From a virus (Duplodnaviria > Caudoviricetes), in the IMG/VR virus record IMGVR_UViG_3300027752_000050, positions 1 to 36,193 of that record: a DNA stretch of 36,193 bases; one strand, 5' to 3'. The translations under genes and the position numbers were made by a program. The notes below the pieces were generated by a model. The model made no database searches. It saw only the letters and a list, made by a program, of their open reading frames with translations, and was not told where the DNA came from. Below, in pieces: positions 5,301 through 18,807 of the stretch (position 1 is the stretch's first letter; each line of letters starts with the position of its first letter).

Positions 5301-5794
5301 CAAAAATGTTTGTATTGGATAATGCCAATCCGGACGAAATATATCAATACACTTTATCTACGGGATTTAATGTTTCTACTGCTAGTTACGATTCTGTAAG
5401 TTTTGACGTAACTGCTCAAACAACTACCGCAAGTGGAATGGCATTTAATGGCGATGGAACAAAGCTCTTGCTTGCTTCTTTTAACAACGGAACTATTTAT
5501 CAATACAACACAAGCACAGTAACCTACACAAACCAAATGGACAAGACTCAGCTAGACGCTGTAACAGACCCAAACCACATAGCTCTTGGTAATGACTTTG
5601 ATTTGTCTATTATCCTGAACATGACCAGTGGTACTACAGTGCCTTCTTCAAACGGTGTAGCGATTAACTACGATGCTAACATTTTAAATCAAGGTGCTGT
5701 GTTGGGTACTGATTATAACTTTGATGCTCCTGCTCAGAACTCTGTAAGGATTACAGCGTTGGCGGGTAATAATCTTAAAGTGCGGGTTGTTTAA
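2309..5794 (+). CDS. Tail fibre/receptor-binding protein 2 with beta-propeller-like repeats
   Basis: 1161 aa, Ser/Thr-rich, with three blocks of ~50-aa repeats (F..DGTKMFV.G...D.V.QY.LST.FDVSTASY..SFSV..QE..P). GAGGAG RBS upstream. Confidence 0.85.
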   Translation: MSNSRDIADSAATINFIDTVTSNVQTQLNTATAAIATNTSAISNISVTNGSLTKTFVNGETASISLTSSVLAPVVSVTKEVPQSGVTNNSWDVNSTSQNYTRLDSAAATTLNWVGGDISEATFASQSFNALSVVGGNVADLALKPDGLKMFLCAGTGVIYEYALSTAFDVSSASYSSTSSNISTQTPALTGISFSPNGAKMYAVGTTNRTIYEFDLSTPWSVASGSLSYSGNSFSIASKETSPTGVTLNPSGTKVYIIGYNSDSVHEFALSTAFDISSASFTSTFSIASQETSPQAILFNSDGTLMFICGSNSSKIHAYNLSSAYDISSSVYNSKFLSVASQTTSPVGFAFNPLGSKLMVFSANNSNVYGYTLPLALSLGSGSFASADVGKTIEANSGAFVLTATSGSYLQVTAPTSFNQVASGSWGMFGVIYNTTDGDLELSGGVGEGYSLSDASYTQTFSVSADDTSPAGIAFNTDGSKMYVVGGAGQDVNEYNLSTAFDISTSVISYAFSVGSQDTQPLDIHFSPSGSLMYILGTTSDSVYEYALSTAFYVGSASFVRSFYLGSQEIYLNGLTMSSDGTKMFVCGSQGADINEYTLSTAFNVSTASFVDSFSVSSQDSDPRGLSFNSDGTEIFMVGQSSQAIYKYSLATAYDISTASLADSFSIAAQETAPTGIAFSTGGAQMFVSGTTGDDVNEYSIQSITLLAGYHAAHTTASTDTTYWTDINSMTANQAAGSGNVYYCISTDDRTTWTVIDNTDGERDIVRNNAGTWQYNSNATYASETWANGTTNTELATIAQAMTGASSAVGYQLATASYDSVSFNASAQETNIFGLTFNADGTAMYTLGYGANTVYQYTLSTAYDITTASYASKSFSVASQETTALKVKFNTNGTKMFVVGQTNDTVFQYTLSTGFDVSTASYASVSFSVAAQEVNPVGMAFNTDGTKMFIVGSANNTVFQYTLSTGFDVSTASYASISFSVSNQSTSSNEVLFNSDGTKMFVLDNANPDEIYQYTLSTGFNVSTASYDSVSFDVTAQTTTASGMAFNGDGTKLLLASFNNGTIYQYNTSTVTYTNQMDKTQLDAVTDPNHIALGNDFDLSIILNMTSGTTVPSSNGVAINYDANILNQGAVLGTDYNFDAPAQNSVRITALAGNNLKVRVV
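4740..5510 (+). repeat. ~156-bp tandem coding repeats (52-aa propeller blades)
   Basis: An exact 41-nt match GTATTTCAATACACGCTATCAACTGGCTTTGATGTTTCTAC occurs at 5024-5064 and 5180-5220; further degenerate copies flank it. Confidence 0.85.
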
Positions 5795-6981
5795 TGAGTC
5801 TAGTAGACTACGCAAAGACAGACCGACATCGTGAAGCAATGCAAGTGTGGGAAGAATGTGGTCGTAATAGTGCAAGGGCTGCGGGGGTACTAGGTATCTC
5901 GCAGTCCACCATGCGCGACTATGTGTCTATCACCAAGAACACTGCGGCGGCTGCGGGATACTCTGAGAATTGGGATGCTCGAAGGCACGTACCGGAAGGT
6001 GAGTTTGTCATCGGTCGCTCTATCTATACGACAAATGACGATGGCGAGAAGGCGTGGCTAAAAACGCGCCGCACCATGACCGAGGCTGCGCGAGATAAAG
6101 CGCTGCAAGGTTTTGTTGACGGTCTTGTTAAAGGGATTAAACCGTACAAGCCCAAAGCCAAGCCAAAGACTAAGAAGTTTGCTACGGATTTATTGCCTGC
6201 AATTGTAATAGGTGATGCCCACTTCGGTATGAGGGCAGACGCAAGAGAGACCAAGGCTCGTGATTACGATACCAAGATAGCCTCGCAAGATATGCTAGCG
6301 GCTATAGAGTATTTGGTAGATGCTGCTCCTGCATCCGAGCAGGCACTACTGGTCAACGTAGGAGACTTTATTCACGCCAATGGTAGTAGTGGCACTACCT
6401 TTGGAGGAACGAAGCTAGACGTAGATACCAGAATAGAAGTAGTGCTTGAGATAGCAGCGCAGACTTTTTTGTACGCAATAGATAAGTTGCTTACGAAACA
6501 TAAGAGTTGCGTTGTGGTAATGGCTAGAGGTAACCACGACTCAGATACTGCCATCGCCCTCGCGCTGATCTTGAAGTTCTACTACTCTAAAGAACCACGA
6601 GTGACCATCTTAGACCCTCACGGATTCTTTCACACCGTGCAGTTTGGCAAGAACCTCTTAGCGGTGCATCATGGGGATAAGGTCAAGGCTGTAAAGCTAG
6701 GCGCTATCCTACCTAAGATGTTACCAGAACAATGGTCAGCCACTGTCTACAGGAAGTGGCTAGTAGGACACATACACCACCAGAACGCCATAGAAACAGA
6801 TAACGGCGTTTTCGTGGAAGCCTTTGGCACATTAGCCCCACCTGATTCTTGGCATGCAGGAGCAGGATACGGTGCTTCTAGCGTGATGAACCAAGTAGTA
6901 TTCCATCGTGACGGAGGAGAGGTTCTTCGTCATGTTTATCAAATCAGAGACTCGCGTAAAGTCCCTGACCTGACGCTATAG
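5794..6981 (+). CDS. Calcineurin-like metallophosphoesterase with N-terminal HTH
   Basis: All five motifs are present (GDAH, VGDFIH, GNHD, HHGD, GHIHH). N-terminal SARAAGVLGISQSTMRDY is HTH-like. Confidence 0.85.
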   Translation: MSLVDYAKTDRHREAMQVWEECGRNSARAAGVLGISQSTMRDYVSITKNTAAAAGYSENWDARRHVPEGEFVIGRSIYTTNDDGEKAWLKTRRTMTEAARDKALQGFVDGLVKGIKPYKPKAKPKTKKFATDLLPAIVIGDAHFGMRADARETKARDYDTKIASQDMLAAIEYLVDAAPASEQALLVNVGDFIHANGSSGTTFGGTKLDVDTRIEVVLEIAAQTFLYAIDKLLTKHKSCVVVMARGNHDSDTAIALALILKFYYSKEPRVTILDPHGFFHTVQFGKNLLAVHHGDKVKAVKLGAILPKMLPEQWSATVYRKWLVGHIHHQNAIETDNGVFVEAFGTLAPPDSWHAGAGYGASSVMNQVVFHRDGGEVLRHVYQIRDSRKVPDLTL

Positions 6982-7423: not shown

Positions 7424-7670
7424 GAAAGCAAAGGCGGCCATTACGCTACTACAGAAAGGAAAGGCAGTATCAGACCCAGCCAAGTGGAAAGCTCGTCAGA
7501 TCACCGCTACGGCCCTCACAGGGGCATTCTGGGCAGCTATTCAGGCAGCAGAGGCGTTTGGTTATGCGTTACCAGTGGATGAAGCTACCGTTGATTCTGT
7601 TGCTATTGGGTTTCTTGCTCTCGTCAACTGGGTGCTCACACTATCAACATCTGAAAAAGTCGGGATGTAA
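7416..7670 (+). CDS. Putative holin (two hydrophobic segments)
   Basis: ITATALTGAFWAAI and VAIGFLALVNWVLTL segments, basic N-terminus, lysis-module context. Confidence 0.6.
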   Translation: MIKKAKAAITLLQKGKAVSDPAKWKARQITATALTGAFWAAIQAAEAFGYALPVDEATVDSVAIGFLALVNWVLTLSTSEKVGM

Positions 7671-7773
7671 TTTGGGGGTAAAGCCTGTTATAGTCAACCC
7701 GCACTGGGTACACGTTGTGCCTAATTTGTATGGCGTAGAAGCCATTTTGCTGACTATGGAGTGTAAGATATGA
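7579..7773 (+). CDS. Putative lipoprotein (o-spanin-like) overlapping the holin-like gene
   Basis: ATG 7579 gives MKLPLILLLLGFLLSSTG-C, a signal peptide II with lipobox-like Cys. Fills the 7670-7770 gap and has an ATGA overlap with the next gene. Confidence 0.6.
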   Translation: MKLPLILLLLGFLLSSTGCSHYQHLKKSGCNLGVKPVIVNPHWVHVVPNLYGVEAILLTMECKI

Positions 7774-8033
7774 ACATATTTACCTATTTAAGCTGGGTCA
7801 AAAAGCTCTGGACGACCGTTGTAGAGATCGTAAAGCTAATCGAAGAAACAATCCCTGATGACGGGGCCGGCAAGGCTAAACTTGCTGCGTTTGATTTGAT
7901 GTTAAAGGCCGCGCTAGAAAAGGCAGACGACATTGATGAGAGCTTTGATAGGCTTCAGCCAGTAGCGCACGATATTGTGGGCGCAGTCGTTACTCTATTC
8001 AACGCTACAGGTTTGTTTAAGCGAGCAGAGTAA
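7770..8033 (+). CDS. Hypothetical amphipathic lysis-module protein
   Basis: GGAG RBS; coupled to the endolysin start (TAATG). Confidence 0.65.
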   Translation: MNIFTYLSWVKKLWTTVVEIVKLIEETIPDDGAGKAKLAAFDLMLKAALEKADDIDESFDRLQPVAHDIVGAVVTLFNATGLFKRAE

Positions 8034-8449
8034 TGGATAGGCTACAACGCCTGCTAATCAGGCACGAGTCTCTCAGGAATAAGCCTTACGAGGACACAAC
8101 TGGGAATCTCACTATTGGGGTTGGAAGAAATCTTGAGTCACTTGGCTTGTCTCGTGACGAGTGTTTATATCTGCTCGATAACGATATAGCTCGCTGCGAC
8201 CGAGAGCTCAGACACAACTTCAAATGGTATCTAGAGCTCTGTAGGGTCCGGCAGGACGCTATGATAAACCTTTGCTTTAATCTGGGCATCACTCGCCTAC
8301 TTACCTTTAAAAAGGCTCTCGCCGCGATGGCTGAGGGCGATTTCAATAAAAGTGCAGACGAGTTTCTTGATTCTAAATGGGCAACTCAAGTCGGGCCCAC
8401 GCGCAGCAGTGATATAGACTGCATGGTGCGGACCGGAAGATACCCGTAA
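8033..8449 (+). CDS. Endolysin, T4-lysozyme-like (GH24)
   Basis: HESLRNKPYEDTTGNLTIGVGRNL has E-x8-D-x5-T catalytic spacing; also NLCFNLG and SKWATQVG motifs. Confidence 0.93.
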   Translation: MDRLQRLLIRHESLRNKPYEDTTGNLTIGVGRNLESLGLSRDECLYLLDNDIARCDRELRHNFKWYLELCRVRQDAMINLCFNLGITRLLTFKKALAAMAEGDFNKSADEFLDSKWATQVGPTRSSDIDCMVRTGRYP

Positions 8450-8489
8450 AAAAAGACCCCTAACCAGCGGGAGAGCCAGTTAGGGGTCT
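8448..8489 (-). terminator. Intrinsic terminator on the minus strand
   Basis: 11-bp stem 8454-8464/8479-8489, extended by G.U pairs only on the minus strand, followed by U7 (A-run 8448-8454). Confidence 0.8.
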
Positions 8490-8519
8490 GCGGTGGTAGC
8501 TGACGGAGATAACCACTCG
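8448..8519 (-). ncRNA. Candidate ~70-nt two-hairpin sRNA with anti-SD loops
   Basis: Minus-strand TATACT -10 at 8529-8524, then a hairpin GUGGU-[UAUCUCCGUCAGCU]-ACCAC, then the terminator hairpin with loop UCUCCC. The -35 is poor. Confidence 0.55.
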
Positions 8520-8549
8520 ACAGAGTATATCCGATTTTTCTTTTGTTGA

Positions 8550-8593
8550 TGTCATCCATTTTGCTTGACAACAGATACGCATCTCTTTACTAT
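8550..8593 (+). promoter_or_regulatory. Sigma70 promoter for the recombination operon with overlapping TGTCA-N11-TGACA operator
   Basis: TTGACA 8565-8570, 17-bp spacer, TACTAT 8588-8593; TGTCA at 8550-8554. Confidence 0.85.
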
Positions 8594-8625
8594 CGTCTAC
8601 GTTATTAACTGACGGAGTAAAGAAA

Positions 8626-9258
8626 ATGACACAACGTACTATCTTCAAGGCGCTCAGCGCTGTCCAGTCCGATTTATCTATAGTCGGAATCGCAAAAAAT
8701 CAACAGAACAGCCACCAAGGCTACAAGTTCCGTGGTATCGACGACGTGCTTAACACGCTGGCGCCGATCATCGCTGAGCATGGCGTTCTGATTATCCCTA
8801 ACGTATTGAGTAAAGACGTAAAGACTATCAACACGGCTCGCGGCGGTGTCGCATCGCACGTGATCCTTGAGGTCGGTTTTGTGCTTTACGATCAGGAAGG
8901 CGATTCTATCTGCCACACTGCCTACGGTGAGGCTATCGATACCAGCGACAAGGCTGTCAACAAGGCGATGACCGCTGCGTATAAATACTTTCTGTTTCAA
9001 GCCTTCTGCATACCTATTGAGGGCCTAGAAGACGCTGACAGCCAACAACCAGAGCAGGCAGAATTACAGCCAGCACTGGTAACGGCTGACACTCTAGCGC
9101 AGATTATCTCTCTGTGCGAAGAGACAGGCGAAGACATTCAGCGCTACGTTGACTGGGCCGAGGTTTCTGAAACAAAGCTTATCCCGCAGGAAAAAGCGGT
9201 GCGCATTGCTGCTAGCCTGACGCGAAAAAAAGAGGCAAAAAATGAAGGGCAGCCATAA
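8626..9258 (+). CDS. erf: ERF-family single-strand annealing protein
   Basis: GYKFRGIDDV and GEAIDTSDKAVNKAMTAAYKY motifs; adjacent to an exonuclease. Confidence 0.88.
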   Translation: MTQRTIFKALSAVQSDLSIVGIAKNQQNSHQGYKFRGIDDVLNTLAPIIAEHGVLIIPNVLSKDVKTINTARGGVASHVILEVGFVLYDQEGDSICHTAYGEAIDTSDKAVNKAMTAAYKYFLFQAFCIPIEGLEDADSQQPEQAELQPALVTADTLAQIISLCEETGEDIQRYVDWAEVSETKLIPQEKAVRIAASLTRKKEAKNEGQP

Positions 9259-9382
9259 TGCTTGTGAGGTATGTAAACAGCAGGGGTCGCGCAGTCAAAG
9301 CGTCTGCTCGCCCTGCTTAGACTTTTTTAACTACGCAATAGCGTTATGGATAAAGGGAGCCCCAAATGCCACGAATAATTGA
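9242..9382 (+). CDS. 46-aa Zn-finger-like protein (below ORF-track cutoff)
   Basis: MKGSHNACEVCKQQGSRSQSVCSPCLDFF...: two CxxC motifs, GAGG RBS, fills the erf-exonuclease gap. Confidence 0.6.
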   Translation: MKGSHNACEVCKQQGSRSQSVCSPCLDFFNYAIALWIKGAPNATNN

Positions 9383-9965
9383 TTGTATCCAAGGTAGCGA
9401 CGAGTGGCTTGCACAGCGTTGCGGAGTCATTACAGCTAGTAACTTCAGCAAGGTATTCACAGGCGCCGGCAAGGCGTCTACTCAGGCTGACGCGCTTATC
9501 AATACTCTTGTAGCGGAACGCATTACTGGTAAGCCTACAGAGACGTTTAAGTCGGACGCCATGCAGCGAGGTAACGATCTGGAGCCTGAGGCTAGGGATA
9601 TGTTCGAGCTAGAAACCGGTTTGTCAGCGGAGCTCGTCGGCCTGATTAAAATGGATGATTACGAGATAGGTTGCTCACCTGACGCCCTCATAGGTGACGA
9701 CTCCGGCCTAGAAATCAAGTGTCCTTCTGCGTCAACCATGATAGCATACAAAAGATCAGGCAAGCTCCCATCGGCATACGTCCAGCAGGTCCACGGTTGT
9801 ATGCTTGTCACTGGGCGTTCTAACTGGTGGTTCTACGCTTACCATCCAGAAATGAAGCCTTTTATCTTGAACGTCAAGCGGGACGATAAACTGCTGGCCG
9901 CAGCGGAAGAGCTGCTAAAAGAAACTGCAATTAAAATTAATGAACTGACGGAGACGTTAAAATGA
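9366..9965 (+). CDS. YqaJ/lambda-exonuclease family recombination nuclease
   Basis: QGSDEWLAQR..ITAS, G.DLEPEAR, GCSPDAL, GLEIKCP and YVQQV motifs. Confidence 0.93.
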   Translation: MPRIIDCIQGSDEWLAQRCGVITASNFSKVFTGAGKASTQADALINTLVAERITGKPTETFKSDAMQRGNDLEPEARDMFELETGLSAELVGLIKMDDYEIGCSPDALIGDDSGLEIKCPSASTMIAYKRSGKLPSAYVQQVHGCMLVTGRSNWWFYAYHPEMKPFILNVKRDDKLLAAAEELLKETAIKINELTETLK

Positions 9966-10270
9966 GTAATTACACCACTATCTTTGAATACGCATTATGG
10001 AAGGACAACGAGCGAAAGAACGATCGAGCTCCTCAAACCAATGGCAGCGCTAGCTTTACCTGCCCTAAGTGCCAGTTCCATATTCCTAAGATCAGGACCA
10101 GCGCTTACACAAACAAGCCTGACCCAGCAGCCCCTAAGCGCCCGCTAATTAAAGGCGACGCAAGCATAAGTTCTGACGCTCTAGCAGAGCTCTTAAACGG
10201 ACCAAGCACGGTTCCTGTCCCAGCGGTAGAGTCACCTATTGATGACTTTGACGACGACTTACCGTTCTAA
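9962..10270 (+). CDS. Probable single-stranded DNA-binding protein
   Basis: Acidic tail DDFDDDLPF as in SSB C-termini; LWKD..K...AP N-terminus; follows erf/exonuclease; contains CPKC. Confidence 0.6.
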   Translation: MSNYTTIFEYALWKDNERKNDRAPQTNGSASFTCPKCQFHIPKIRTSAYTNKPDPAAPKRPLIKGDASISSDALAELLNGPSTVPVPAVESPIDDFDDDLPF

Positions 10271-10279
10271 GGAGTAATC

Positions 10280-10489
10280 ATGGATTTTGGCAAAGCTTTA
10301 ATAGCGGCCCAAGATCTCAAGGGTGTTCGGTCAGCGCAACTGGCCGAGCAACTTGGAGTCAGCAGGCAGCAGATACACAAATGGCGCACCAAGAAAGATG
10401 CGCGGTTGTCACTGGTTGTTAAGTTCTCAAAAGAGCTTGATATTGACGTAATGGAATTCTTGGAGCTCGCCAATGCCAGCAATAGCTAA
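10280..10489 (+). CDS. Cro/XRE-type HTH transcriptional regulator
   Basis: SAQLAEQLGVSRQQIHKW HTH; 69 aa with no peptidase domain; AAGGAG RBS. Confidence 0.88.
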   Translation: MDFGKALIAAQDLKGVRSAQLAEQLGVSRQQIHKWRTKKDARLSLVVKFSKELDIDVMEFLELANASNS

Positions 10490-10721
10490 ATTCACTTATG
10501 CCCTAGCGGCTATTGAAGATGCAACATGGCGAGCCTCACAGTATCAGGAGCCCTACGCAGTTATAGAGCTCAAGGGCGATTTTGGCGTTTGCTCGTTTGA
10601 CGACTTAGAGCCCTACGATAATATCTTGGAAATATGCACTCCGACAAAAAGCAAGTTAACGGTGGAAAATGAACAATTTCAAGCGCCCGAGGCAGTACGC
10701 CGCAGAGATTATGAAGATTGA
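10473..10721 (+). CDS. Hypothetical protein
   Basis: GGAG RBS; overlapping operon arrangement. Confidence 0.6.
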   Translation: MPAIAKFTYALAAIEDATWRASQYQEPYAVIELKGDFGVCSFDDLEPYDNILEICTPTKSKLTVENEQFQAPEAVRRRDYED

Positions 10722-10839
10722 AGACAGGGAGGAGCGCCGCGAGGCGCTTAATAAAGTGCCCGAGGACCTTCGGGACTGGGTAAAAAAATTGGTGGTAAAC
10801 GCTTATGAAATTCGAGCAGCTAGAAGAAACAGCGCGTAA
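10669..10839 (+). CDS. 56-aa hypothetical protein (below ORF-track cutoff)
   Basis: MNNFKRPRQYAAEIMKIEDREERREALNKVPEDLRDWVKKLV...; fills the gap and resembles a common small phage protein pattern. Confidence 0.65.
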   Translation: MNNFKRPRQYAAEIMKIEDREERREALNKVPEDLRDWVKKLVVNAYEIRAARRNSA

Positions 10840-11122
10840 GTACGCGGAGGCTGAAGCCAGCCGGCAGTACCTGATGGAGTTTAGAAAGTCTAAGAAAGCT
10901 TTGCTTATGGGCGAGGCTGAGCGTGATAACCCTAAAATGCCTATTGCCGCTCAAGAGCGTTACGCTTACTCTCACCATGAGTACCTAGAATTACTTGATG
11001 GGCTCAAGGTTGCAATAGAACAGGCCGTCGGGCTCAAGCACCAGCTTGCAGTCTGGCAAATGAAGTTTGAGACATGGCGCACTCAGGAATCAACCAAACG
11101 CGCGGAGATGAATATAAGATGA
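10805..11122 (+). CDS. Hypothetical coiled-coil phage protein
   Basis: 105-aa helical ORF within the operon. Confidence 0.7.
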   Translation: MKFEQLEETARKYAEAEASRQYLMEFRKSKKALLMGEAERDNPKMPIAAQERYAYSHHEYLELLDGLKVAIEQAVGLKHQLAVWQMKFETWRTQESTKRAEMNIR

Positions 11123-11307
11123 TAAATGAGAAAGGTGATTATATTCCGCCCGACGATGTTGAAAGGCTATCTAAGGGATTCTCTGTAATGAGTGAGAAGT
11201 TTTCATTGGCTTTGCTTAAGTCACGCTCGCGCAAGATGGACCACGAAACCTTTGACCGGTGCATTAGGACCATGGCGGCCCTAAAGGGCAAAAGTTATTT
11301 CCGATGA
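11119..11307 (+). CDS. Hypothetical protein
   Basis: ATGA-coupled start at 11119 (MINEKGD...) with a GGAG RBS; in frame with listed ORF 11074..11307. Confidence 0.55.
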   Translation: MINEKGDYIPPDDVERLSKGFSVMSEKFSLALLKSRSRKMDHETFDRCIRTMAALKGKSYFR

Positions 11308-11879
11308 AGACAAGACGCTGCAAACTATGCCGCACCAAGATGCCTGAAGATCAGGTAATCATGGGCGGCATTTATTCGTTTTGCTCTTGGGATCATCTGC
11401 ACGAGTACACCACGACAGATCAGGCAAAAAAGACTGCCAAATTGTCGTATGCTCGTGAAGCAAAAGCTGTTAAGGAATCCCTGAAGACTGCCTCAGATTA
11501 CGTCAAAGAAGCTCAGACTGCTTTTAACGCATATATCAGAATCAGGGACCGCAACAAGCCCTGTATTAGCTGCGGGACCGCTCAGGGCGAGACAGTGCAG
11601 GGCGGCAAGTTTGACGCTGGGCACTACCGTTCACGTGGATCTGCTGGGCACCTTAGATACCATTTATTGAATTGCCACAGTCAGTGCGTCAAATGCAACC
11701 GGTATCTCTCAGGCAACGTCGTAGAGTACCGTAAAGGGCTGATTGAGAAGGTTGGTCCTGAGCGCGTAGAGCGGCTTGAAATGGATAATAATCCACGTAA
11801 ATTTACCATTGAGTACCTGAAGCGGGTAAAAAAGATCTTTAATTACCGAAAGCGGTTATACGAAAGGAAGTTCAGATGA
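11304..11879 (+). CDS. ninG: NinG/Rap-family recombination endonuclease
   Basis: AQTAFNAYIRIRD..PCISCG, DAGHYRSRG and NCHSQCVKCNRYLSGN motifs. Confidence 0.93.
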   Translation: MKTRRCKLCRTKMPEDQVIMGGIYSFCSWDHLHEYTTTDQAKKTAKLSYAREAKAVKESLKTASDYVKEAQTAFNAYIRIRDRNKPCISCGTAQGETVQGGKFDAGHYRSRGSAGHLRYHLLNCHSQCVKCNRYLSGNVVEYRKGLIEKVGPERVERLEMDNNPRKFTIEYLKRVKKIFNYRKRLYERKFR

Positions 11880-12082
11880 GCGAAAAACATATAATTTCGA
11901 TGAGTTCTAAAGAGCTGGACACTTTCATGGATGATGAGTTTAAACAGCTCCCAGAGAGCTCTCAGAGGGCCGTAGCGACCTTAATGCTTATGTGCTCAGA
12001 CTACGTGGACTTTATTGTGAAAATAGATTTATGGGACGATTTTGAGGACTATATACAGCTTGACGAAGTGGAGATGCACTAA
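11876..12082 (+). CDS. Hypothetical acidic protein
   Basis: ATGA/TAATG coupling with its neighbours. Confidence 0.6.
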   Translation: MSEKHIISMSSKELDTFMDDEFKQLPESSQRAVATLMLMCSDYVDFIVKIDLWDDFEDYIQLDEVEMH

Positions 12083-12300
12083 TGATAAACCCTAGGCGCC
12101 AAGTCGGCGGGACTCACTACGAAAAACTTAAGATTCAGCCTATTCAATATATCCTTGAGAATAAGCTCGGCTATTGCGAGGGGAATATTATCAAGTACAT
12201 TACTCGATGGAAGGACAAGAACGGCATTGAGGATTTGCGCAAGATAATCCAGTACGCTGAGTTTCTTATTGATCAAGAGATCTCAGATCGCAACGCGTAA
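12082..12300 (+). CDS. DUF3310 (T7 gp1.7 nucleotide-kinase-like/SaV-like) protein
   Basis: QVGGTHY..IQPI, GYCEGNIIKYITRWKDKNGIEDLRK..Y signature. Confidence 0.88.
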   Translation: MINPRRQVGGTHYEKLKIQPIQYILENKLGYCEGNIIKYITRWKDKNGIEDLRKIIQYAEFLIDQEISDRNA

Positions 12301-12310
12301 AATTTCAGTC

Positions 12311-12348
12311 AAAAAAAAGCCCGAGCGTTTCACAACGTGTCGGGACTT
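12311..12348 (-). terminator. Intrinsic terminator, minus-strand orientation
   Basis: CCCGA-CGTT/AACG-TCGGG stem preceded by A8 on the + strand (U8 after the hairpin on the minus strand). Confidence 0.7.
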
Positions 12349-12398
12349 AAAAAAAAGAATCAGAAATAAAAAGCATATAGATTAAATCACGTTTTCGC

Positions 12399-12427
12399 TT
12401 GCAGAATTATTTCTGTAAGAGTAATCT
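12399..12427 (+). promoter_or_regulatory. Putative sigma70 promoter overlapped by a palindrome
   Basis: TTGCAG-17-TAATCT; inverted repeat TTGCAGAA-TTAT-TTCTGTAA at 12399-12418. Confidence 0.5.
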
Positions 12428-12439
12428 GTGAAAGTTAGA

Positions 12440-12513
12440 TGTCGGTGGGTTGTTAAGGCCCTGAATTCCGGCTAGATCAATACGGAGAAGCAAGTGTAGC
12501 CAGAAACCCGACA
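12440..12513 (-). ncRNA. Candidate three-way-junction antisense RNA with UUCUCC loop
   Basis: Closing stem TGTCGG/CCGACA; 9-bp arm UUCUGGCUA/UAGCCGGAA; 5' end coincides with the predicted start of a minus-strand promoter. Confidence 0.5.
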
Positions 12514-12519
12514 AGGGCT

Positions 12520-12552
12520 ATTCTACACTATATGTTGTGTTCTTCAACATAT
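12520..12552 (-). promoter_or_regulatory. Putative minus-strand sigma70 promoter overlapped by a palindrome
   Basis: TTGAAG (12547-12542), 16 bp, TAGAAT (12525-12520); perfect 8-bp inverted repeat ATATGTTG-N7-CAACATAT at 12530-12552. Confidence 0.55.
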
Positions 12553-12580
12553 TTTCTCTATAGATTTAGTCTACGACTCG

Positions 12581-12846
12581 ACTGCGAAGGATATGTCACC
12601 TGTAAAGGGTCTCTCACCGATCGCAGTTTAAAGCCCCAAAAGAGTAGCGCGGGGGCACCGCAACTTGCTAAAAGTCTGAATGCGGCGCGGGGGGATGGAG
12701 CAGCATCCCTTGCAGACTTGCTTGTATCAACTGACTCATTGATACGGCCTCGCTGTCCATACGACAGGCTCCGAAGGCAATGCAATGTCCCGAAATCTAC
12801 TTCACTGTGGGTTGGGGCTTGCTTGCTCGCAGAACCGCCAACTCAC
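12581..12846 (+). ncRNA. Candidate highly structured non-coding RNA (~270 nt), family not recognised
   Basis: Continuous run of at least 8 stems, a GUAA tetraloop, a G.U pair favouring the + strand, and no credible ORF. Confidence 0.55.
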
Positions 12847-12859
12847 CAAAGGCAATACA

Positions 12860-13057
12860 ATGACAAACACTGAGAACATAGATGATCTTAGAGAGAAGCC
12901 GTGTAGATGCGGAGAGGTAATGGGTGAGGTGATAGGGTTCAAAGAGAGAGTGACTGATAACCAAATGGTTATGTACAGAGTCTGCTGGTACTGCCCTGAA
13001 TGCCACGCGATAGATAAGGCAATAGGCAGGGAAACTTTTATTAGTCAGAAAGGTTGA
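12860..13057 (+). CDS. Small Cys-rich (Zn-ribbon-like) protein
   Basis: ATG 12860 after AAAGG; CRCG...CWYCPEC. Confidence 0.6.
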   Translation: MTNTENIDDLREKPCRCGEVMGEVIGFKERVTDNQMVMYRVCWYCPECHAIDKAIGRETFISQKG

Positions 13058-13083
13058 CAGTATAAATAAAAATAAACTAAGAT
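13054..13083 (+). promoter_or_regulatory. Sigma70 promoter
   Basis: TTGACA 13054-13059, 18-bp AT-rich spacer, TAAGAT 13078-13083. Confidence 0.7.
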
Positions 13084-13130
13084 TAGGTTATTGGTTGCAC
13101 AACGCAGCCACTCTTGACGGAGATAGCACT

Positions 13131-13430
13131 ATGAAAAATCAAAACATTGTATCAGCGGTTGTCCCAGAGGGCCGCTATGAGATCACTGGCGAAATTCTTT
13201 ACACTAAATGGTATGAGTCAGATTACGGTCCGTGCCTGAAGTGTACCATTCGAGACGACCGAGGCTTTCGAGTTTTCGGTTCAGTTCCAACGGCTATTGT
13301 TGATTACACCGAGTCAGAAAAAATTGATCTTATCGGTCAACGCATTCATCTGACAGGCACGGTAACTCAGACCGAAGACGACAATAAATTCGGTTTCTTC
13401 AAACGCCCAGCCAAAGCCGAATTAATCTAA
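13131..13430 (+). CDS. Hypothetical protein, possible OB-fold
   Basis: ATG 13131 follows the TGACGGAGATA RBS; beta-rich, ends FGFFKRP. Confidence 0.7.
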   Translation: MKNQNIVSAVVPEGRYEITGEILYTKWYESDYGPCLKCTIRDDRGFRVFGSVPTAIVDYTESEKIDLIGQRIHLTGTVTQTEDDNKFGFFKRPAKAELI

Positions 13431-13449
13431 TTTCTCTGGAGACAAAGTT

Positions 13450-13650
13450 ATGAAAAAAGAATTCTATCTATTAACGCTCGCAATCATTGTTATTGCTGGG
13501 CTCAACTATTCCGGCAAGCTTGAACAGCAAGACGCCGAAATCGCATCTGCTGAATACGCCTCTATGGTGTGCCTTGGCAGAGAAACCGGTCAGCAATTCG
13601 GCTGGCCAAATTACTTAAACCTTGAAATAAACTGTACGGAGATAAACTAA
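13450..13650 (+). CDS. Small membrane-anchored protein
   Basis: N-terminal hydrophobic helix, two Cys, GGAG RBS. Confidence 0.65.
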   Translation: MKKEFYLLTLAIIVIAGLNYSGKLEQQDAEIASAEYASMVCLGRETGQQFGWPNYLNLEINCTEIN

Positions 13651-13871
13651 TGACTTACCACGTAATCGAACGCGATGTTGAAATCCCAGAATTAAGTCGT
13701 AAGAAAGGCGGAGTCTGGGCCGATCTTGCTAACAAAATGTCAGTAGGTGACAGCGTTGAGCTAAAGAGTACAAGCGAAGTTAGTGGCCTTGTTTCGGCTT
13801 TGAAAAAGCGTAACTACAACGCAGCCCAGCGTAAACACCTCAACAAATACAGGGTCTGGAGAACCCAGTAA
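13650..13871 (+). CDS. Small basic hypothetical protein (possible nucleic-acid binding)
   Basis: IERDVEIP...MSVGDSV...RVWR pattern common in small phage proteins; ACGGAGATAA RBS. Confidence 0.7.
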   Translation: MTYHVIERDVEIPELSRKKGGVWADLANKMSVGDSVELKSTSEVSGLVSALKKRNYNAAQRKHLNKYRVWRTQ

Positions 13872-13884
13872 AAATAATTAGTAT

Positions 13885-13978
13885 TTGTCACCCGAAAAGG
13901 TTGACACCCGCAGTGGTTTCTATAGAATGGGAACCACTGAGGGGCATACTGCTCCTCACCAACGGGAGAAACATCATG
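13885..13978 (+). promoter_or_regulatory. Promoter/operator/hairpin cassette, copy 1
   Basis: TGTCA-N11-TGACA; TTGACA 13901, 16 bp, TAGAAT 13923; inverted repeat around the -10; leader hairpin; homologous to 14285-14379. Confidence 0.85.
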
Positions 13979-14284
13979 GAAATCAACAACTACACCCTAG
14001 AGCTCGAAGCTGACAACATCGTTAATCAAGCGCTTGTATCGCACAATGAGTTCGGCGAAGACGCCGTACAAGTAATCCACGAAGTCTGCTTCGCCCACCA
14101 ATGGGCTACCTATTACGCCAAGGCGTTCCAACTGTGCTTGAATTGCGACACCGATGAAGGCGAAGATTACCTTGAGGAGACAGGTGATACTCACTTCACC
14201 AGCATCTCTGACCATGCGACCAAGGTAGCCTACGCCACACTGCTGCAAACCTCTATGAAAAAATATTTTCATTATTTTGATTAA
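13976..14284 (+). CDS. Ocr (T7 gp0.3)-like acidic protein, putative DNA-mimic anti-restriction factor
   Basis: IHEVCFAHQWATYYAKAFQL and ATKVAYATL recall Ocr IHMAADNAVPHYYADIFSV and LQARIYEQL; acidic, 102 aa, own strong promoter. Confidence 0.55.
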   Translation: MEINNYTLELEADNIVNQALVSHNEFGEDAVQVIHEVCFAHQWATYYAKAFQLCLNCDTDEGEDYLEETGDTHFTSISDHATKVAYATLLQTSMKKYFHYFD

Positions 14285-14379
14285 TTGTCATCTAAAGTGG
14301 TTGACACCCCTGATGGTTCTGCTAAGATGGGAACCATTGGAGGGGCGCGGTGCTCCTCCCAAACAGGAGAAAGAAAATG
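14285..14379 (+). promoter_or_regulatory. Promoter/operator/hairpin cassette, copy 2
   Basis: TGTCA-N11-TGACA; TTGACA 14301, 16 bp, TAAGAT 14323; exactly 400 bp after copy 1. Confidence 0.85.
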
Positions 14380-14613
14380 AAAACAGCATATTTATCACAG
14401 TGGGAAATCCAGCAAATGGCAGAGGCCGCTCTTACTTCATACGAGTTTAGCTGCTGCTGGAAGCGCGCGTTTCAAGAGGCTGCTGAGTTTGCAACTGACG
14501 AGTTAGGCGTAAAGCCGACTCGTGCTCAAGCTGCAACGGCAGTAAGAATTGCTCAAACTGGCTGGGAGGGCATTCGCCAATCAGTAGAGACAGTAATTTA
14601 TAACGCTCAATAA
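14377..14613 (+). CDS. Hypothetical early protein
   Basis: ATG 14377 after AGGAG; 78 aa, helical. Confidence 0.7.
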   Translation: MKTAYLSQWEIQQMAEAALTSYEFSCCWKRAFQEAAEFATDELGVKPTRAQAATAVRIAQTGWEGIRQSVETVIYNAQ

Positions 14614-14623
14614 CAATAATCGC

Positions 14624-14637
14624 GCCCCTACGGGGGC
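14624..14637 (+). other. GC hairpin with UACG tetraloop (no U-tract)
   Basis: GCCCC-TACG-GGGGC immediately 5' of the CACTCTTGACGGAGA RBS motif. Confidence 0.6.
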
Positions 14638-14657
14638 ACTCTTGACGGAGAATCACC

Positions 14658-14870
14658 ATGGATCCAGTAATCGCAGACCTTAACCGCTACCTCGACGAGT
14701 GCGAAGCTTCTATTGACGAGCAGGAAGCAGCCGAGCTTGAGCTCTACCGCGATCGCCTAGATTGGGCAACTCGCGTACTGTCAAACGAAACATTGACCAT
14801 AGCCGAGAAAGCGCGCCGAATTGTTGCCGGCATTGAAGAAGAAATAGAAGAGGCCCTCAATGGAGCTTAG
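14658..14870 (+). CDS. Hypothetical acidic protein
   Basis: TGACGGAGA RBS; overlaps the helicase start. Confidence 0.7.
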   Translation: MDPVIADLNRYLDECEASIDEQEAAELELYRDRLDWATRVLSNETLTIAEKARRIVAGIEEEIEEALNGA

Positions 14871-16362
14871 ACCTCACCAGCAGAAGGGAATCGACATGGT
14901 TCGTGATTCCCTTCGTACAGGCCACATGAGGCCATTACTGGCAGCACCCTGTAGTTACGGAAAAACGTACGTGGCGCTAACAATGATGCTCGCTTACGCT
15001 GAGACAGGCCGTCGATCAGTGTTTTTCGCAGATAGAGTGAAGCTCGTGCAGCAAACGGCCGACACGCTGGACCACATGGGCATTGATTACTCTGTCATGC
15101 AGGCAGACGATCCAAGGTGGGACCCGCGCAAGCTTATTCAAATTGCGTCAATTCAAACGGCAGTGAATCGCCCTAACTTTGATTTTCACTTTGCCGTAGT
15201 GGACGAGGCCCATACTGTCTATAAGGGTTTCAAGGAGAAATACCTAGATCGCTACGACGCTATCCCGTTTGTTGCGCTTTCAGCCACGCCATTCAGCAAA
15301 GCCTTGGGGCAGGTTTGGGATGATCTATTAATCCCGATTACTAGCGAGGAGCTCACTGAGCTGGGCTACTTGGCGCCGATTGATTACTACGTCGGCAGCT
15401 CGGTAGATACCTCTGGCATTCGCACAATGCGCCTGCCCACTGGTGGAACTGAGTTTAATCCAAACGACCTAGGCGCTGCGATGGTAGAGGATGATCAGCT
15501 TAGCGGTGACATAGTGGAGAACTACCTAAAGCATTCGCCTGACGGCTCAAAGCGCGCGATTGCATTCTGCCCTACCATTGACCATAGCAAAACACTGGTA
15601 GACAAGTTTAACGCGCACCCAAGCGGAATCAAGGCTCGTCACATTGATGGTTATACCGAAGAAGATCTGAGGCGGGCATTGTACGCAGATCATAAGGCAG
15701 GGCTCTTTTCGGTGCTCTCATGCAGTCGCTTGCTCGGAACCGGATACGATGCGCCCTACGTAGAAATGTTGATTGATTGCTACCCGTGCAAATCGAAGAT
15801 AGATTTCGTGCAGCGCTGCGGAAGGGTGGCTAGGATATCTCCAGAAACTGGCAAAACACGCGCGATCTACCTTGATCACGCCGGCAACATTACACGCCAC
15901 GGCCAGCTCCCAGATACGATTGTGCCCTATCAGCTAGACGACGGCACCAAGCGTTACAACGAGGACCGGTTGATAGAGCAAGAAGAGCGCCAGCCAGTGC
16001 TCAGGCCGTGCCCAGTCTGCACAACTCAAATGAGCGGTAGACGGTGCAAGGCTTGCGGTTATGAGCTCCCTGTAGATTCTGAGATCTACACTGACAACGA
16101 GATACTCAAAAAGATTGAGCGTGAGAATATGCCCAAGCCTGAGCAGTTTTCAATAGACGATAAGTCTCGCTGGCTGTCAGAGCTCTACCACTACGCAAAT
16201 CTCAAAGGCTTTAAGCAAGGCTGGGCCCACTATAAGTACCAAGAGAAGTTCGGAGTAGCGCCGGCCAGAGTTAATCTCACCAAGGTTGACGGAATCTCTC
16301 TCGAGGTTAAGAACTGGATAACATCAAGGAACATTGCTAATGCACATCGACGAGCTCGCTAA
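14860..16362 (+). CDS. SF2 (DEAH/ResIII-type) helicase with C-terminal Zn ribbon
   Basis: LRPHQ Q-motif, APCSYGKT, VDEAH, LSATP, QRCGRVAR, and CPVC..CKACG. Confidence 0.93.
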   Translation: MELRPHQQKGIDMVRDSLRTGHMRPLLAAPCSYGKTYVALTMMLAYAETGRRSVFFADRVKLVQQTADTLDHMGIDYSVMQADDPRWDPRKLIQIASIQTAVNRPNFDFHFAVVDEAHTVYKGFKEKYLDRYDAIPFVALSATPFSKALGQVWDDLLIPITSEELTELGYLAPIDYYVGSSVDTSGIRTMRLPTGGTEFNPNDLGAAMVEDDQLSGDIVENYLKHSPDGSKRAIAFCPTIDHSKTLVDKFNAHPSGIKARHIDGYTEEDLRRALYADHKAGLFSVLSCSRLLGTGYDAPYVEMLIDCYPCKSKIDFVQRCGRVARISPETGKTRAIYLDHAGNITRHGQLPDTIVPYQLDDGTKRYNEDRLIEQEERQPVLRPCPVCTTQMSGRRCKACGYELPVDSEIYTDNEILKKIERENMPKPEQFSIDDKSRWLSELYHYANLKGFKQGWAHYKYQEKFGVAPARVNLTKVDGISLEVKNWITSRNIANAHRRAR

Positions 16363-16765
16363 CCTCTGCGACAAGCCTCGCAAGAACTCCAAGGGCTGGA
16401 CCGTATGCTGTCCGGTTCACGGTGAGACCAATCCCAGCATGGGGATAACTACTGGCCGCAAGGGTGACATCATTGCAAACTGCTTTGCGTGTGGCGCTAA
16501 CGGGATGGACCTCGCTGACGCACTGGGAATAAACAAATCAGAGCTCTTCGCGCAACCTCTGCAAAAGGGGCAGGACAGGCACTGGCAACTGAACTCTACA
16601 ACGGACTTAGATGATGGCTTTATTGTAATCCACGAGAGCGCCCTAAAGCGCGGCGAGAAGCCACGCTATGACGACATGGTAGAGTATAAGCAAGCAAAGG
16701 CTAGACGAGCTCAGAGATTCGCTCTGGGCCTACAACAGACGATAATCCCATGGAAGAAACTTTAA
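16334..16765 (+). CDS. CHC2-type primase Zn-binding-domain protein without catalytic domain
   Basis: CPVHGETNPSM...NCFACGANG; only 143 aa (start may be 16340). Confidence 0.8.
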   Translation: MLMHIDELANLCDKPRKNSKGWTVCCPVHGETNPSMGITTGRKGDIIANCFACGANGMDLADALGINKSELFAQPLQKGQDRHWQLNSTTDLDDGFIVIHESALKRGEKPRYDDMVEYKQAKARRAQRFALGLQQTIIPWKKL

Positions 16766-16980
16766 TGGTTAATACAGAACATGACAGAGAGAAGGACAAG
16801 CTTCTGGTAAAGCTTGCTCAGGACAAGGCGGCTTACTTCGCCGCTGGTGGCAAGGTTACTAACTACCCTGCCCAGACCTTTGCCTCAGACCTTCACAGCG
16901 ACTACAACGCCAGAAACAAGAAGGTGAACCTTCGGTTCGGATCAAGAATAGAGCCTAGTTTCCCTGATGCCGTGTTATAA
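16750..16980 (+). CDS. Small protein with SutA-RBD-like F..GGK motif
   Basis: KAAYFAAGGKVT resembles the helix-F-x-x-x-GG-x-I/V motif; last gene before the late genes. Confidence 0.55.
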   Translation: MEETLMVNTEHDREKDKLLVKLAQDKAAYFAAGGKVTNYPAQTFASDLHSDYNARNKKVNLRFGSRIEPSFPDAVL

Positions 16981-16981
16981 T
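16973..16981 (+). promoter_or_regulatory. Extended -10 promoter upstream of terS
   Basis: TG-T-TATAAT with no consensus -35. Confidence 0.6.
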
Positions 16982-17015
16982 TCAGCAATATGAAGCATTT
17001 ACAGGATTTATCAAA

Positions 17016-17387
17016 ATGAGCTCAGAAGGTCGTCCGCCTAGGGTGTTTTCACCAGCAGAAATTGAAGAGTGCCAGCGCTTGGCCGCGTCAATAACCAAGC
17101 GCCAGCTCGCAGATTATTTTGGTTGTAGTTTCAATACCTTGCAGGCCGCTATGCAAAGGCAGCCTGAATTTAATGAAGCTTACAGAAAGGGTAAGGCTAT
17201 GGCGATCATTCAGATGGCCGGATCATTGCAGATGAAGGGGCTCGACGGTGACGTGGGAGCTGCTAAGTTCTGGCTATCTCACCAAGCCGGATGGTCCGAG
17301 ACCAAGCGCACCGAGCTCTCTGGTCCTAACGGCGACCCCATTGAGATGGACGTTGACATGAAATGGACTATCGAGGTCGTTGAATGA
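17016..17387 (+). CDS. terS: Terminase small subunit
   Basis: GRP N-terminus, HTH (QLADYFGCS), AAKFWL..GW, ELSGPNGDPI tail; directly upstream of terL. Confidence 0.88.
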   Translation: MSSEGRPPRVFSPAEIEECQRLAASITKRQLADYFGCSFNTLQAAMQRQPEFNEAYRKGKAMAIIQMAGSLQMKGLDGDVGAAKFWLSHQAGWSETKRTELSGPNGDPIEMDVDMKWTIEVVE

Positions 17388-18807
17388 GTGCCTACACATA
17401 ATGCCTGCGATGCAAATCCCCAAGAAGCTTCAGCCTTTCCTTAAGCCTAAGCGCATCAAGGTCGCACTGGGCGGAAGGGGAAGTGGGAAAAGCATGAGCA
17501 TCGCGGACCTGTGCCTGATGGACGCAATGACCAAGGGCATCAAGACGCTTTGCTTTCGTGAGTTCCAGAACAGCATAGACGACTCGGTGCTTAGCATCCT
17601 GCGCGCTGAGATAGAGCGCCTGAACCTTAGTGGATTTGATGTCCAAAAGTCTCAGATCCTGTACAACGAAGAGCCCGCGTTCCGCTTCAAGGGTATGGCT
17701 CGGGACCCAGAGGCAATTAAATCGGCGCACGGGTTCCAAAGGTTCTGGGTCGAGGAAGCTCAGACAATATCCTTTGACTCTCTCAAGGCCCTAACGCCTA
17801 CACTCCGCGAGGAGGGCTCGGAGCTCTGGTTCTCGGCTAACCCTCGGTCCTCACTAGACGCGTTCAGTCAGCGCTTTATCAAGCCGTTTGAGAAGGAGCT
17901 TCTGCGCGACGGGTTCTATGAGGACGAAGATCATCTGATCATCATGATCAACATTGAGGACAACTCTCTAGCGCCTGACGTTCTCAAGCGTGAGATGGAG
18001 GGCGACAGGGATAGGATGAGCCCTGCCCTCTTTGACCATGTGTGGCGTGGTCACTTCTTGGATGACGTTGAGGATTCTATCATTCCAGCAGAGTGGTTTG
18101 ATGCAGCGATTGATGCTCACGTTAAGCTAGGCTTTGAGGGCACCGGAGCAATCATCGCCTCACACGACCCCTCAGACGAAGGCGGGGACAGTAAAGGCTT
18201 TGCTCTACGCAAGGGGTCAGTAGTCCTAGACATCTGCGAGAAGGTCACAGGCGACGTTGCAGAGGGTATGGACTGGGCGCTGCGCAAGGCCCGCGAGTGT
18301 CAGGCCGATTGGTTCGTCTGGGACTGTGACGGCATGGGCATAGCGCTTAAGCGTCAGGTAGATGCCGAGCTCGAGTCTACTGCAATGCAGAAGCACCAGT
18401 TCAGGGGCTCAGAGTCACCTGATGACGCAATGATCCCCTACAGCGGCTCAGACTCTAAGACCAACCGCGACACGTTCCTGAATAAGCGCGCGCAGTACTG
18501 GTGGAAGCTCAGGGACCGCTTCGAGGCAACCTATCGCGCAGTGACAAAGGGTGAGTATATAGACCCCGAGAATCTCATCTCTCTGTCGTCTGAAATCCCC
18601 GTATTACAGCAGCTCAGGTCCGAGGTGTGTCGTATACCACAAAAAAGGTCAAACAATGGTAAAATCGCCATAATGACCAAGATAGACATGGCGAAGAAAT
18701 ATCAACTGCCCTCACCTAACATGGGCGACGCACTAATGATGGCGATGTTTTCGCCGAAACAGATCGCCAAGCAGGCGGTCAAAATCAATTTTCAGGGCTG
18801 GGGCTAG
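17380..18807 (+). CDS. terL: Terminase large subunit (PBSX-like; start may be 17401)
   Basis: GGRGSGKS Walker A, CFREFQNSI, WVEEAQ Walker B, SANP; nuclease acidic residues HDPSDEG and SPNMGDALMM. Confidence 0.96.
   Translation: MNECLHIMPAMQIPKKLQPFLKPKRIKVALGGRGSGKSMSIADLCLMDAMTKGIKTLCFREFQNSIDDSVLSILRAEIERLNLSGFDVQKSQILYNEEPAFRFKGMARDPEAIKSAHGFQRFWVEEAQTISFDSLKALTPTLREEGSELWFSANPRSSLDAFSQRFIKPFEKELLRDGFYEDEDHLIIMINIEDNSLAPDVLKREMEGDRDRMSPALFDHVWRGHFLDDVEDSIIPAEWFDAAIDAHVKLGFEGTGAIIASHDPSDEGGDSKGFALRKGSVVLDICEKVTGDVAEGMDWALRKARECQADWFVWDCDGMGIALKRQVDAELESTAMQKHQFRGSESPDDAMIPYSGSDSKTNRDTFLNKRAQYWWKLRDRFEATYRAVTKGEYIDPENLISLSSEIPVLQQLRSEVCRIPQKRSNNGKIAIMTKIDMAKKYQLPSPNMGDALMMAMFSPKQIAKQAVKINFQGWG

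Follow-up and report, generated by a model that had tools for sequence, protein, structure and literature searches.

The locus between the endolysin and erf genes of this phage raises the question of what a conserved hairpin-terminator unit on the minus strand is doing in a genome where every identified gene lies on the plus strand. The stretch of DNA analysed (the window) spans 36,193 bases, is complete as a virus record, and has a terminal repeat of 221 nt. The virus is an uncultured podovirus; its head, portal, and ejection module was P22-like in PHROG matches, and the nearest cultured capsid was that of Pseudoalteromonas phage H6/1 (56%). PHROG matches also placed an endolysin gene at 8033-8449 (plus strand) and, in the early region, genes for Erf, an exonuclease (Exo), a short HTH protein, NinG, a helicase, and a primase. 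A first-pass annotation had proposed that a small RNA encoded divergently from the main early promoter could silence many early genes in trans. As set out below, a conserved minus-strand RNA with loops complementary to the phage's own early ribosome-binding sites (RBSs) is a well-supported prediction.

Fold, strand, and signals of the predicted RNA

Positions 8448..8517 of the minus strand are predicted, from folds and from conservation in 11 aligned variants, to encode a small RNA of ~70 nt. Its 5′ end is placed at ~8517 from the −10 box, and its 3′ end falls within a U7 tract that overlaps the endolysin stop codon. The RNA would contain two structures. Hairpin 1 (8493..8516, minus strand) has a 5-bp stem and a 14-nt loop that is mostly unpaired in the ensemble; the invariant core of this loop, UCUCCGUC (plus-strand positions 8502-8509), is complementary to what we term class-1 sites, (U)GACGGAGA. 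An intrinsic terminator follows (8448..8489, minus strand), with a 15-pair stem that includes G.U pairs and a U7 tail. Its loop, UCUCCC (8469-8474), is likewise mostly unpaired in the ensemble and is complementary to class-2 sites, CGGGAGA. This terminator had the longest stem among 18 terminator-like sites in 7500-17500. The sequence strings quoted in the first-pass annotation were all found where it had placed them, and its minus-strand hairpin and terminator, with a stem extended by G.U pairs and the loop UCUCCC, were borne out by folding.

With regard to strand, hairpin plus terminator folded at −32.7 kcal/mol (z −5.1) on the minus strand and at −30.6 kcal/mol (z −4.0) on the plus strand. 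The terminator stem had 11-12 pairs on the minus strand versus 9-10 on the plus strand in 8/8 variants, and within the window the terminator has a U-tract only on the minus strand. The predicted promoter (8524..8531, minus strand) consists of a −10 box, TATACT, with a G at −14. The box had already been picked out in the first-pass annotation, and both TAnnnT and G(−14) were conserved in all eight variants checked. A canonical −35 element was not present at 17 nt from this −10 box; TGACA lies 19-20 nt upstream. Given the terminator pair counts by strand and the conserved −10 box, a minus-strand RNA starting near 8517 is favoured.

These same data bear on the idea that the shared motif is an RNA site for a protein, either Csr/Rsm-like or a phage translational repressor, and that the plus-strand hairpins act as a decoy within endolysin 3′ read-through RNA. 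ANGGA is the Csr/Rsm motif; plus-strand loop 1 displays ACGGA, which fits it, and the plus strand does fold, as its z-score indicates. However, the plus strand loses 1-3 stem pairs in each of the eight variants and carries no U-tract in the window, loop 2 lacks ANGGA, and the conserved −10 box points to the other strand. A Csr/Rsm sponge would show several ANGGA loops on the transcribed strand, whereas only one ANGGA was found here, on the strand without the U-tract. We therefore regard a protein-binding decoy as very unlikely.

The Rfam scan suggested in the first-pass annotation gave no gathering match for the unit, nor any elsewhere in the window or in seven other loci including that of H6/1. 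The best weak match, ctRNA_pGA1, scored 22.8 bits against a gathering threshold of 45, and a counter-transcript reading was rejected because no gene leader lies opposite the 8448-8517 unit on the other strand. No transcript was identified among RNA-library contigs from 4 of 13 listed runs, in which contigs made up small shares: one 240-nt contig touched 8493-8526 and none spanned the terminator; the contigs carry no strand, and these data are uninformative on strand, ends, level, and habitat. In sum, a conserved, C/U-rich, unpaired seed and an intrinsic terminator occur together in a short predicted RNA, and 8448-8517 is a real, conserved, and uncatalogued RNA gene candidate with a specific proposed mechanism.

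Conservation in the clade

The unit was present in 13/13 viral-contig clade loci that cover the site (L001-L011, L135, and L136; Erf 63-97% identical), and further variants were obtained from metagenome loci. The 11 aligned variants have Erf proteins 63-100% identical to that of the window; L504, which equals the window in length and in its Erf sequence, was left out of the counts. The loop cores GACGGAGA and CGGGAG (given as plus strand) were invariant in 11/11 variants, and the promoter spacer varied, as did the stems, with compensation; the hairpin 1 stem differed in sequence in L003, L135, L136, and L515. When pairing was scored in eight variants, 94.8% of cells were paired and four pairs had changed on both sides, compared with 24-56% of cells paired in slid controls; hairpin 1 was misaligned in two rows of this count, which lowered the hairpin 1 figure. 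For the terminator alone (12 pairs, eight variants), 100% of cells were paired and three pairs had changed on both sides.

Conservation of the loop and its co-variation with RBS motifs had been put forward as a check on the proposal. The first part held, in that both cores are invariant, but co-variation within the clade was flat or contradictory: the loop-by-genome matrix was nearly flat, and in L515 and L136 the base 5′ of the loop core breaks the match to the phage's own erf site. Fine co-variation is not evident in the clade, since loop and site barely vary there. A loose DNA pattern for hairpin 1 retrieved 119 stretches, nearly all by chance; beyond clade members, only L031 was of note. 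A terminator pattern retrieved 13 loci, comprising six from the clade or from the record of L031 and seven unrelated terminators. A sister lineage (L207, L292-L309, L323, L332, and L333) has lysis and early genes in common with the window; its erf-exo operon is inverted, and the stretches fetched from it were without the two-hairpin unit.

Complementarity to early translation starts

When curated start regions were compared, the loops matched at least 7 nt at 7/21 early starts versus 0/25 late starts (p=0.002). The motif is therefore not equally common at late genes, in line with the first-pass annotation, which had not seen it at terminase, portal, scaffold, coat, or tail starts, and the explanation that it is merely the host's normal extended Shine-Dalgarno was rejected, since it is absent from all 25 late starts. 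The remaining 14/21 early starts, including those of exo, ninG, and helicase, had no match. Taken as whole sets, early and late starts did not differ significantly in interaction energy (Mann-Whitney p=0.29; the position of one late start was wrong in this comparison); the early-late signal sits in a subset of starts. The string TGACGGAG occurs six times on the plus strand and never on the minus strand, compared with 0.98 on average and at most 4 in 100 shuffles. Of these six copies, four belong to starts, one is that of the loop, and the last, at 6909, is inside ORF 5794-6981.

Five class-1 sites were found, all on the plus strand. At the erf RBS, the site spans 9 nt (8609..8617), with a predicted gain of −10.6 kcal/mol, and TGACGGAG is invariant there in 11/11 variants. 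The site of ORF 9962 (9945..9954, 10 nt; predicted gain −11.8 kcal/mol) lies in the last codons of exo. The other three belong to ORF 13131, the first gene after a promoter at 13054 (13115..13125, 11 nt; predicted gain −17.3 kcal/mol), to ORF 13650 (13636..13644; predicted gain −16.3 kcal/mol), and to ORF 14658, upstream of helicase (14643..14651, 9 nt; predicted gain −14.3 kcal/mol). The claim of a perfect loop 1 match at five RBSs thus stands for the five sites, with a correction at 13636, where the loop accounts for 9 nt and the tenth base pairs with stem sequence; this site reads ACGGAG rather than TGACGGAG.

The terminator loop matches a class-2 site at ORF 13976 (13963..13969, plus strand, 7 nt). 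This match had also been proposed earlier and is present, although weak, with a predicted gain of only −4.6 kcal/mol. The earlier list of six matched early starts was sound but incomplete: ORF 11119 has a 7-nt loop match at 11103..11109 (plus strand), making it a possible weaker target. Absence of the motif from late starts likewise held at the threshold of at least 7 nt, but late gene 29700 partly matches both loops, a match lost in the two relatives where its start was located. Two gene labels did not survive, as neither the "SSB-like" ORF 9962 nor the "Ocr-like" ORF 13976 had a PHROG or Pfam match, and the latter had no Atlas match either. The slot of the former holds a true Pfam SSB in L135.

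The site within exo was informative. Its codons, CTG ACG GAG, were kept in 11/11 exo genes, whereas only 13 of the 78 invariant residues with four- or sixfold codon choice keep their codon. The site also persists in L135, where the downstream gene is the different, Pfam-type SSB. Among relatives, both site classes (including the CGGGAGA class) precede many non-homologous genes, and one gene flips class between genomes. Given that the site classes stand before unrelated genes and that the same gene can have either class, the motif goes with the leader and not with the gene.

It might be argued that the RNA is real but is aimed mainly at mRNAs of the host or of other phages with GGAG-type sites, and that the phage's early genes share the motif for some other reason, such as a shared origin of their leader cassettes. 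C-rich anti-Shine-Dalgarno seeds are commonly aimed at cellular mRNAs (PMC12205990), and shared descent is plausible, since the early cassettes share promoter and leader sequence beyond the site. Nevertheless, the loop has conserved exactly the bases that the early sites have conserved, down to synonymous positions inside exo; late genes avoid the motif; and H6/1, described below, has its own matched loop/site pair. This alternative consequently appears unlikely.

As a separate observation, the sixth TGACGGAG copy (6909-6916) lies in an ORF, 5794-6981, that is late and exonuclease-like, and it is not at a start; L508 and L510 have it too, equally far from erf.

Early promoters, inverted repeats, and a candidate regulator

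The predicted RNA gene stands back to back with the erf-exo early promoter, a sigma70-type sequence on the plus strand (TTGACA-17-TACTAT, 8565..8593). An inverted repeat, TGTCA-N11-TGACA (8550..8570), overlaps the erf −35 element and is centred at about −43 from the predicted RNA start, making it a candidate operator. Three exact copies occur in the window (8550-8570, 13886-13906, and 14286-14306), all over the −35 elements of predicted early promoters. GTCA and TTTGCTTGA of the repeat were invariant in 11/11 variants, and the repeat, whose left half is retained in relatives, is present at their early promoters.

A second, looser repeat, YGTCA-N11-TGACG, spans the erf start site and RBS, with the TGAC of the motif as its right half. 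This raises the question of whether the motif is one half of a DNA operator whose overlap with the Shine-Dalgarno sequence is fortuitous, the hairpins then being a mere terminator for stray antisense transcription. The erf repeat does resemble the one at −35, and a promoter spacer of the sister phages L207, L295, L297, and L306 contains a site-like motif. Yet the left half is missing at the other four class-1 sites and at the loop copy, all six TGACGGAG copies are on one strand, and a plain terminator would need neither an invariant loop nor a second conserved hairpin. An operator half-site is, in our judgement, decidedly unlikely as an account of the motif.

The early operon contains a Cro/C1-type HTH gene of 69 aa (10280..10489, plus strand) that is a candidate for the protein binding the inverted repeat; its own RBS is without the loop-complementary motif. 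The statement that this is a genome with no CI therefore needs qualification: no other CI-type repressor was found, but this HTH protein is a candidate protein regulator. The spacing of ~43 bases between repeat and RNA start is the geometry of lambda OR2 to PRM. Because the RNA promoter lacks a good −35 element and lies at about −43 from a repeat that also covers three early −35 elements, one regulator could both repress and activate. As a working model, a dimeric regulator on the inverted repeat, with the early Cro-like HTH protein as candidate, would repress the three early promoters and activate the RNA promoter, and the same regulator would thereby bring the early phase to a close on two levels, DNA and mRNA. 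That an HTH dimer represses early promoters and switches the RNA on is speculative, and we hold it to be somewhat doubtful.

The position of the RNA gene had previously been described as the place of a cI gene, with immunity as one possible role. In its full form, this reading makes the RNA an immunity or carrier-state factor that replaces CI and silences early genes of a resident or incoming phage, as P1 c4 and P4 CI do. The back-to-back arrangement with the main early promoter, the fact that the only CI-type repressor in the genome is the 69-aa HTH protein, and the c4 precedent (PMC12197685) all speak for it. However, neither an integrase nor an antirepressor was found among 53 ORFs scanned against PHROGs, and an Erf profile search of 185,579 prokaryote genomes returned no clade member or prophage (best Erf match, 47%). 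Moreover, the loops are invariant across the clade, whereas c4 antisense RNA is the basis of P1/P7 heteroimmunity (PMC12197685). With no integrase or prophage found, the placement in a cI slot and the immunity role are unsupported, and we consider immunity highly improbable. A role in shutting off the early phase fits better than immunity, as there is no sign of lysogeny.

Two side observations were made in this region. Two early promoter-leader cassettes (13895-13990 and 14295-14390) can form alternative hairpins and are kept in relatives before different genes. Their Shine-Dalgarno sequences were predicted to be unpaired at 0.74 and 0.97 in RNA from the cassettes' own promoters versus 0.29 and 0.33 in read-through RNA, so that a start-site-dependent switch is possible in the folding model. 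The other is an element at 12310-12900, in which a further minus-strand terminator (UUGUGAA in its loop) is accompanied by a sigma70-type promoter and by a conserved leader starting GTCGGTGGGTT. It is common to the sister phages L207, L294-L306, L323, L332, and L333, had no Rfam match at threshold, and includes an ACGGAGA at 12482 that is away from any start.

Own-versus-other test and phage H6/1

To place the loop matches on an unpicked footing, all intergenic terminator units were collected, and the match of each to the phage's own start regions was compared with its match to those of other clades. For the window element, all seven tested variants ranked first among the 21 clades (p≤0.0034). 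Of 39 units outside the window's cluster, two reached p<0.01, namely those of H6/1 (p=0.0002) and of G026/L357 (p=0.0024). In a second set, drawn from terminase relatives of H6/1 (36 loci of at least 9 kb, out of 80), 0/34 units did so. In both sets combined, 71/73 units outside the cluster were without an own-site match at p<0.01; after correction for 73 tests, H6/1 passes and G026 fails. Since few units outside the cluster pass, the test is not inflated and the design is not universal.

In H6/1 (L362, KX257490.2), the unit lies at 35604-35669 and is unannotated. It consists of a promoter-like site after the gp55 stop, a hairpin, a linker, and a terminator. Its three C/U seeds differ in sequence from the window loops and match the phage's own non-structural starts: 13/37 non-structural versus 0/19 structural/lysis starts were matched (p=0.002, with the seeds chosen after the unit was inspected). 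When seeds and starts were swapped, own starts were matched at 7/46 (window) and 13/56 (H6/1), compared with 2/56 and 2/46 in the crossed combinations. In both phages, the matched starts include the erf-like slot. The opposite strand of the H6/1 unit gives a slightly more stable fold (−20.4 vs −18.7), and the unit might do no more than terminate the upstream gene. No relative of this unit was found, and no cultured phage was found with DNA similarity to the 8448-8517 locus.

The G026/L357 unit (same as L395; 5879-5965) has three hairpins on the minus strand, with two C/U loops, a terminator, and a TATACT box; it lies directly after a Cro/C1-type HTH gene. A similar unit follows the HTH gene of L031. 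As a case of co-variation (loops CUCCCUCCAG, sites CTGGAGGG), L031 was rejected, having given p=0.18 and rank 6 of 21 in the unbiased test; L213, L337, L347, L012, L250/L262, and G025 failed the own-versus-other test as well. Another candidate, "Element B" (a terminator and promoter before a conserved leader), ranked first in L207, L295, L297, and L306 (p 0.01-0.06) and did not do so in seven other loci. It was not counted as support, because the motif there sits in the promoter spacer.

Proposed mechanism

From the fold, strand signals, invariant seeds, and early-restricted complementarity seen in the sequence, we infer that the RNA is made, pairs, and represses, with multi-target translational repression as the best inference. 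In the proposed scheme, transcription of 8448-8517 would yield an RNA of ~70 nt, and its two C/U-rich loops would pair with the extended RBSs common to six or seven early genes. Pairing over the Shine-Dalgarno region would block 30S entry, in the manner of the C-rich seeds of bacterial sRNAs (PMC12205990), and thus turn translation down. The bases beside GGAG (UGAC..A and C..A) would serve as a phage-private address; host and late mRNAs with an ordinary Shine-Dalgarno would pair weakly, since specificity lies in the bases beyond GGAG. A gene that came to sit behind such a leader by exchange would become a member of the regulon. We consider it reasonably likely that a trans-acting anti-Shine-Dalgarno RNA damps early translation in this way through loops complementary to early RBSs, and a role in early-to-late shut-off is plausible.

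A broader reading is that many phages run an RNA-addressed regulon of this kind, pairing a private extended early RBS with one anti-Shine-Dalgarno RNA under the same regulator, and so end the early phase without CI; this we put forward tentatively and think rather improbable. If it is true, the Start-Associated Sequences (SAS) of other phages would in some cases be such addresses, and a single RNA acting over a set of a phage's own early genes would be a post-transcriptional route to infection timing. It would likewise provide one explanation, open to testing, of RBS over-conservation in some phages, and a 70-nt RNA with 8-11-nt seeds would be a compact orthogonal translation switch. The cultured phage H6/1, if it has the same design, makes the idea directly testable.

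Comparison with known systems

Known phage RNAs differ in the breadth of their targets. As described in PMC12197685, c4, sar, OOP, and aQ act on single phage genes, and VpdS and PreS act on or through the host. A close likeness is to P1/P7 c4 (RF01695), which is also phage-encoded, ~70-80 nt long, and trans-acting, has seeds that probably lie in loops, and blocks translation near an RBS in mRNA of the phage itself (PMC12197685). Unlike the unit described here, c4 controls ant mRNA and immunity in a temperate phage (PMC12197685). Unlike c4, the unit matches many early genes via a shared extended Shine-Dalgarno and has its own terminator and predicted promoter. The loop seeds do lie against the phage's own RBSs, but there was no match to RF01695, a model absent from the five Rfam matches up to E=10 in 8300-8700, and no ant-mRNA target. 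As proposed, the unit works like P1 c4, yet it is not a member of the c4 family. P22 sar and lambda OOP are likewise short RNAs of phages, and each represses a phage gene through base pairing (PMC12197685). A single target is described for each (ant and cII, respectively), whereas our unit lies outside all of its predicted targets and matches several by short seeds.

Among chromosomal RNAs, RsaA, RNAIII, the csRNAs, and CJnc190 resemble the unit in setting a C/U-rich loop seed, and often more than one, against a G-rich Shine-Dalgarno sequence (PMC12205990); RsaA and RNAIII are staphylococcal C-rich/CU-rich anti-Shine-Dalgarno sRNAs (PMC12205990). In contrast to the unit, whose seeds fit a motif private to phage early genes, these RNAs act on cellular mRNAs (PMC12205990). 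No motif matching the unit appears in the accessible part of Weinberg et al. 2010 (PMC2864571), and no published description of the unit, or of a multi-target phage anti-Shine-Dalgarno RNA, was found in a search of mostly open-access papers.

The SAS of Cluster K mycobacteriophages, reported by Pope et al. 2011, were left open as binding sites for either RNA or protein (PMC3203893), and in 2024 their role was still called unknown (PMC11373665). Like the sites described here, SAS are over-conserved, phage-specific extended RBSs that precede non-structural genes, and an inverted repeat often covers the upstream promoter (PMC3203893, PMC11373665). The two are unrelated in sequence, and a reverse SAS was found in a hairpin loop in only 3/10 Cluster K phages checked. 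One reverse SAS copy was described in four phages (PMC3203893). In our analysis, a 10-nt reverse-SAS complement was present in Anaya and Angelica, as the 10-nt loop of a long stem, and in Mdavu, where the surrounding stem is similar; no more than 5 nt matched at the corresponding place in Yuna, Hurricane, Pixie, TM4, Shandong1, Amgine, and Bryler. In folding, the Anaya loop was recovered with one window but not with a longer one. We treat the Cluster K reverse-SAS hairpin as a lead only. It lies in a conserved and highly structured intergenic region close to the genome's right end (30770-31060 in Anaya, L404; 29530-29830 in Angelica, L407) that is matched by 186 records, and the start of Cluster K late transcription has been placed between genes 92 and 93, towards the right end (PMC11373665).
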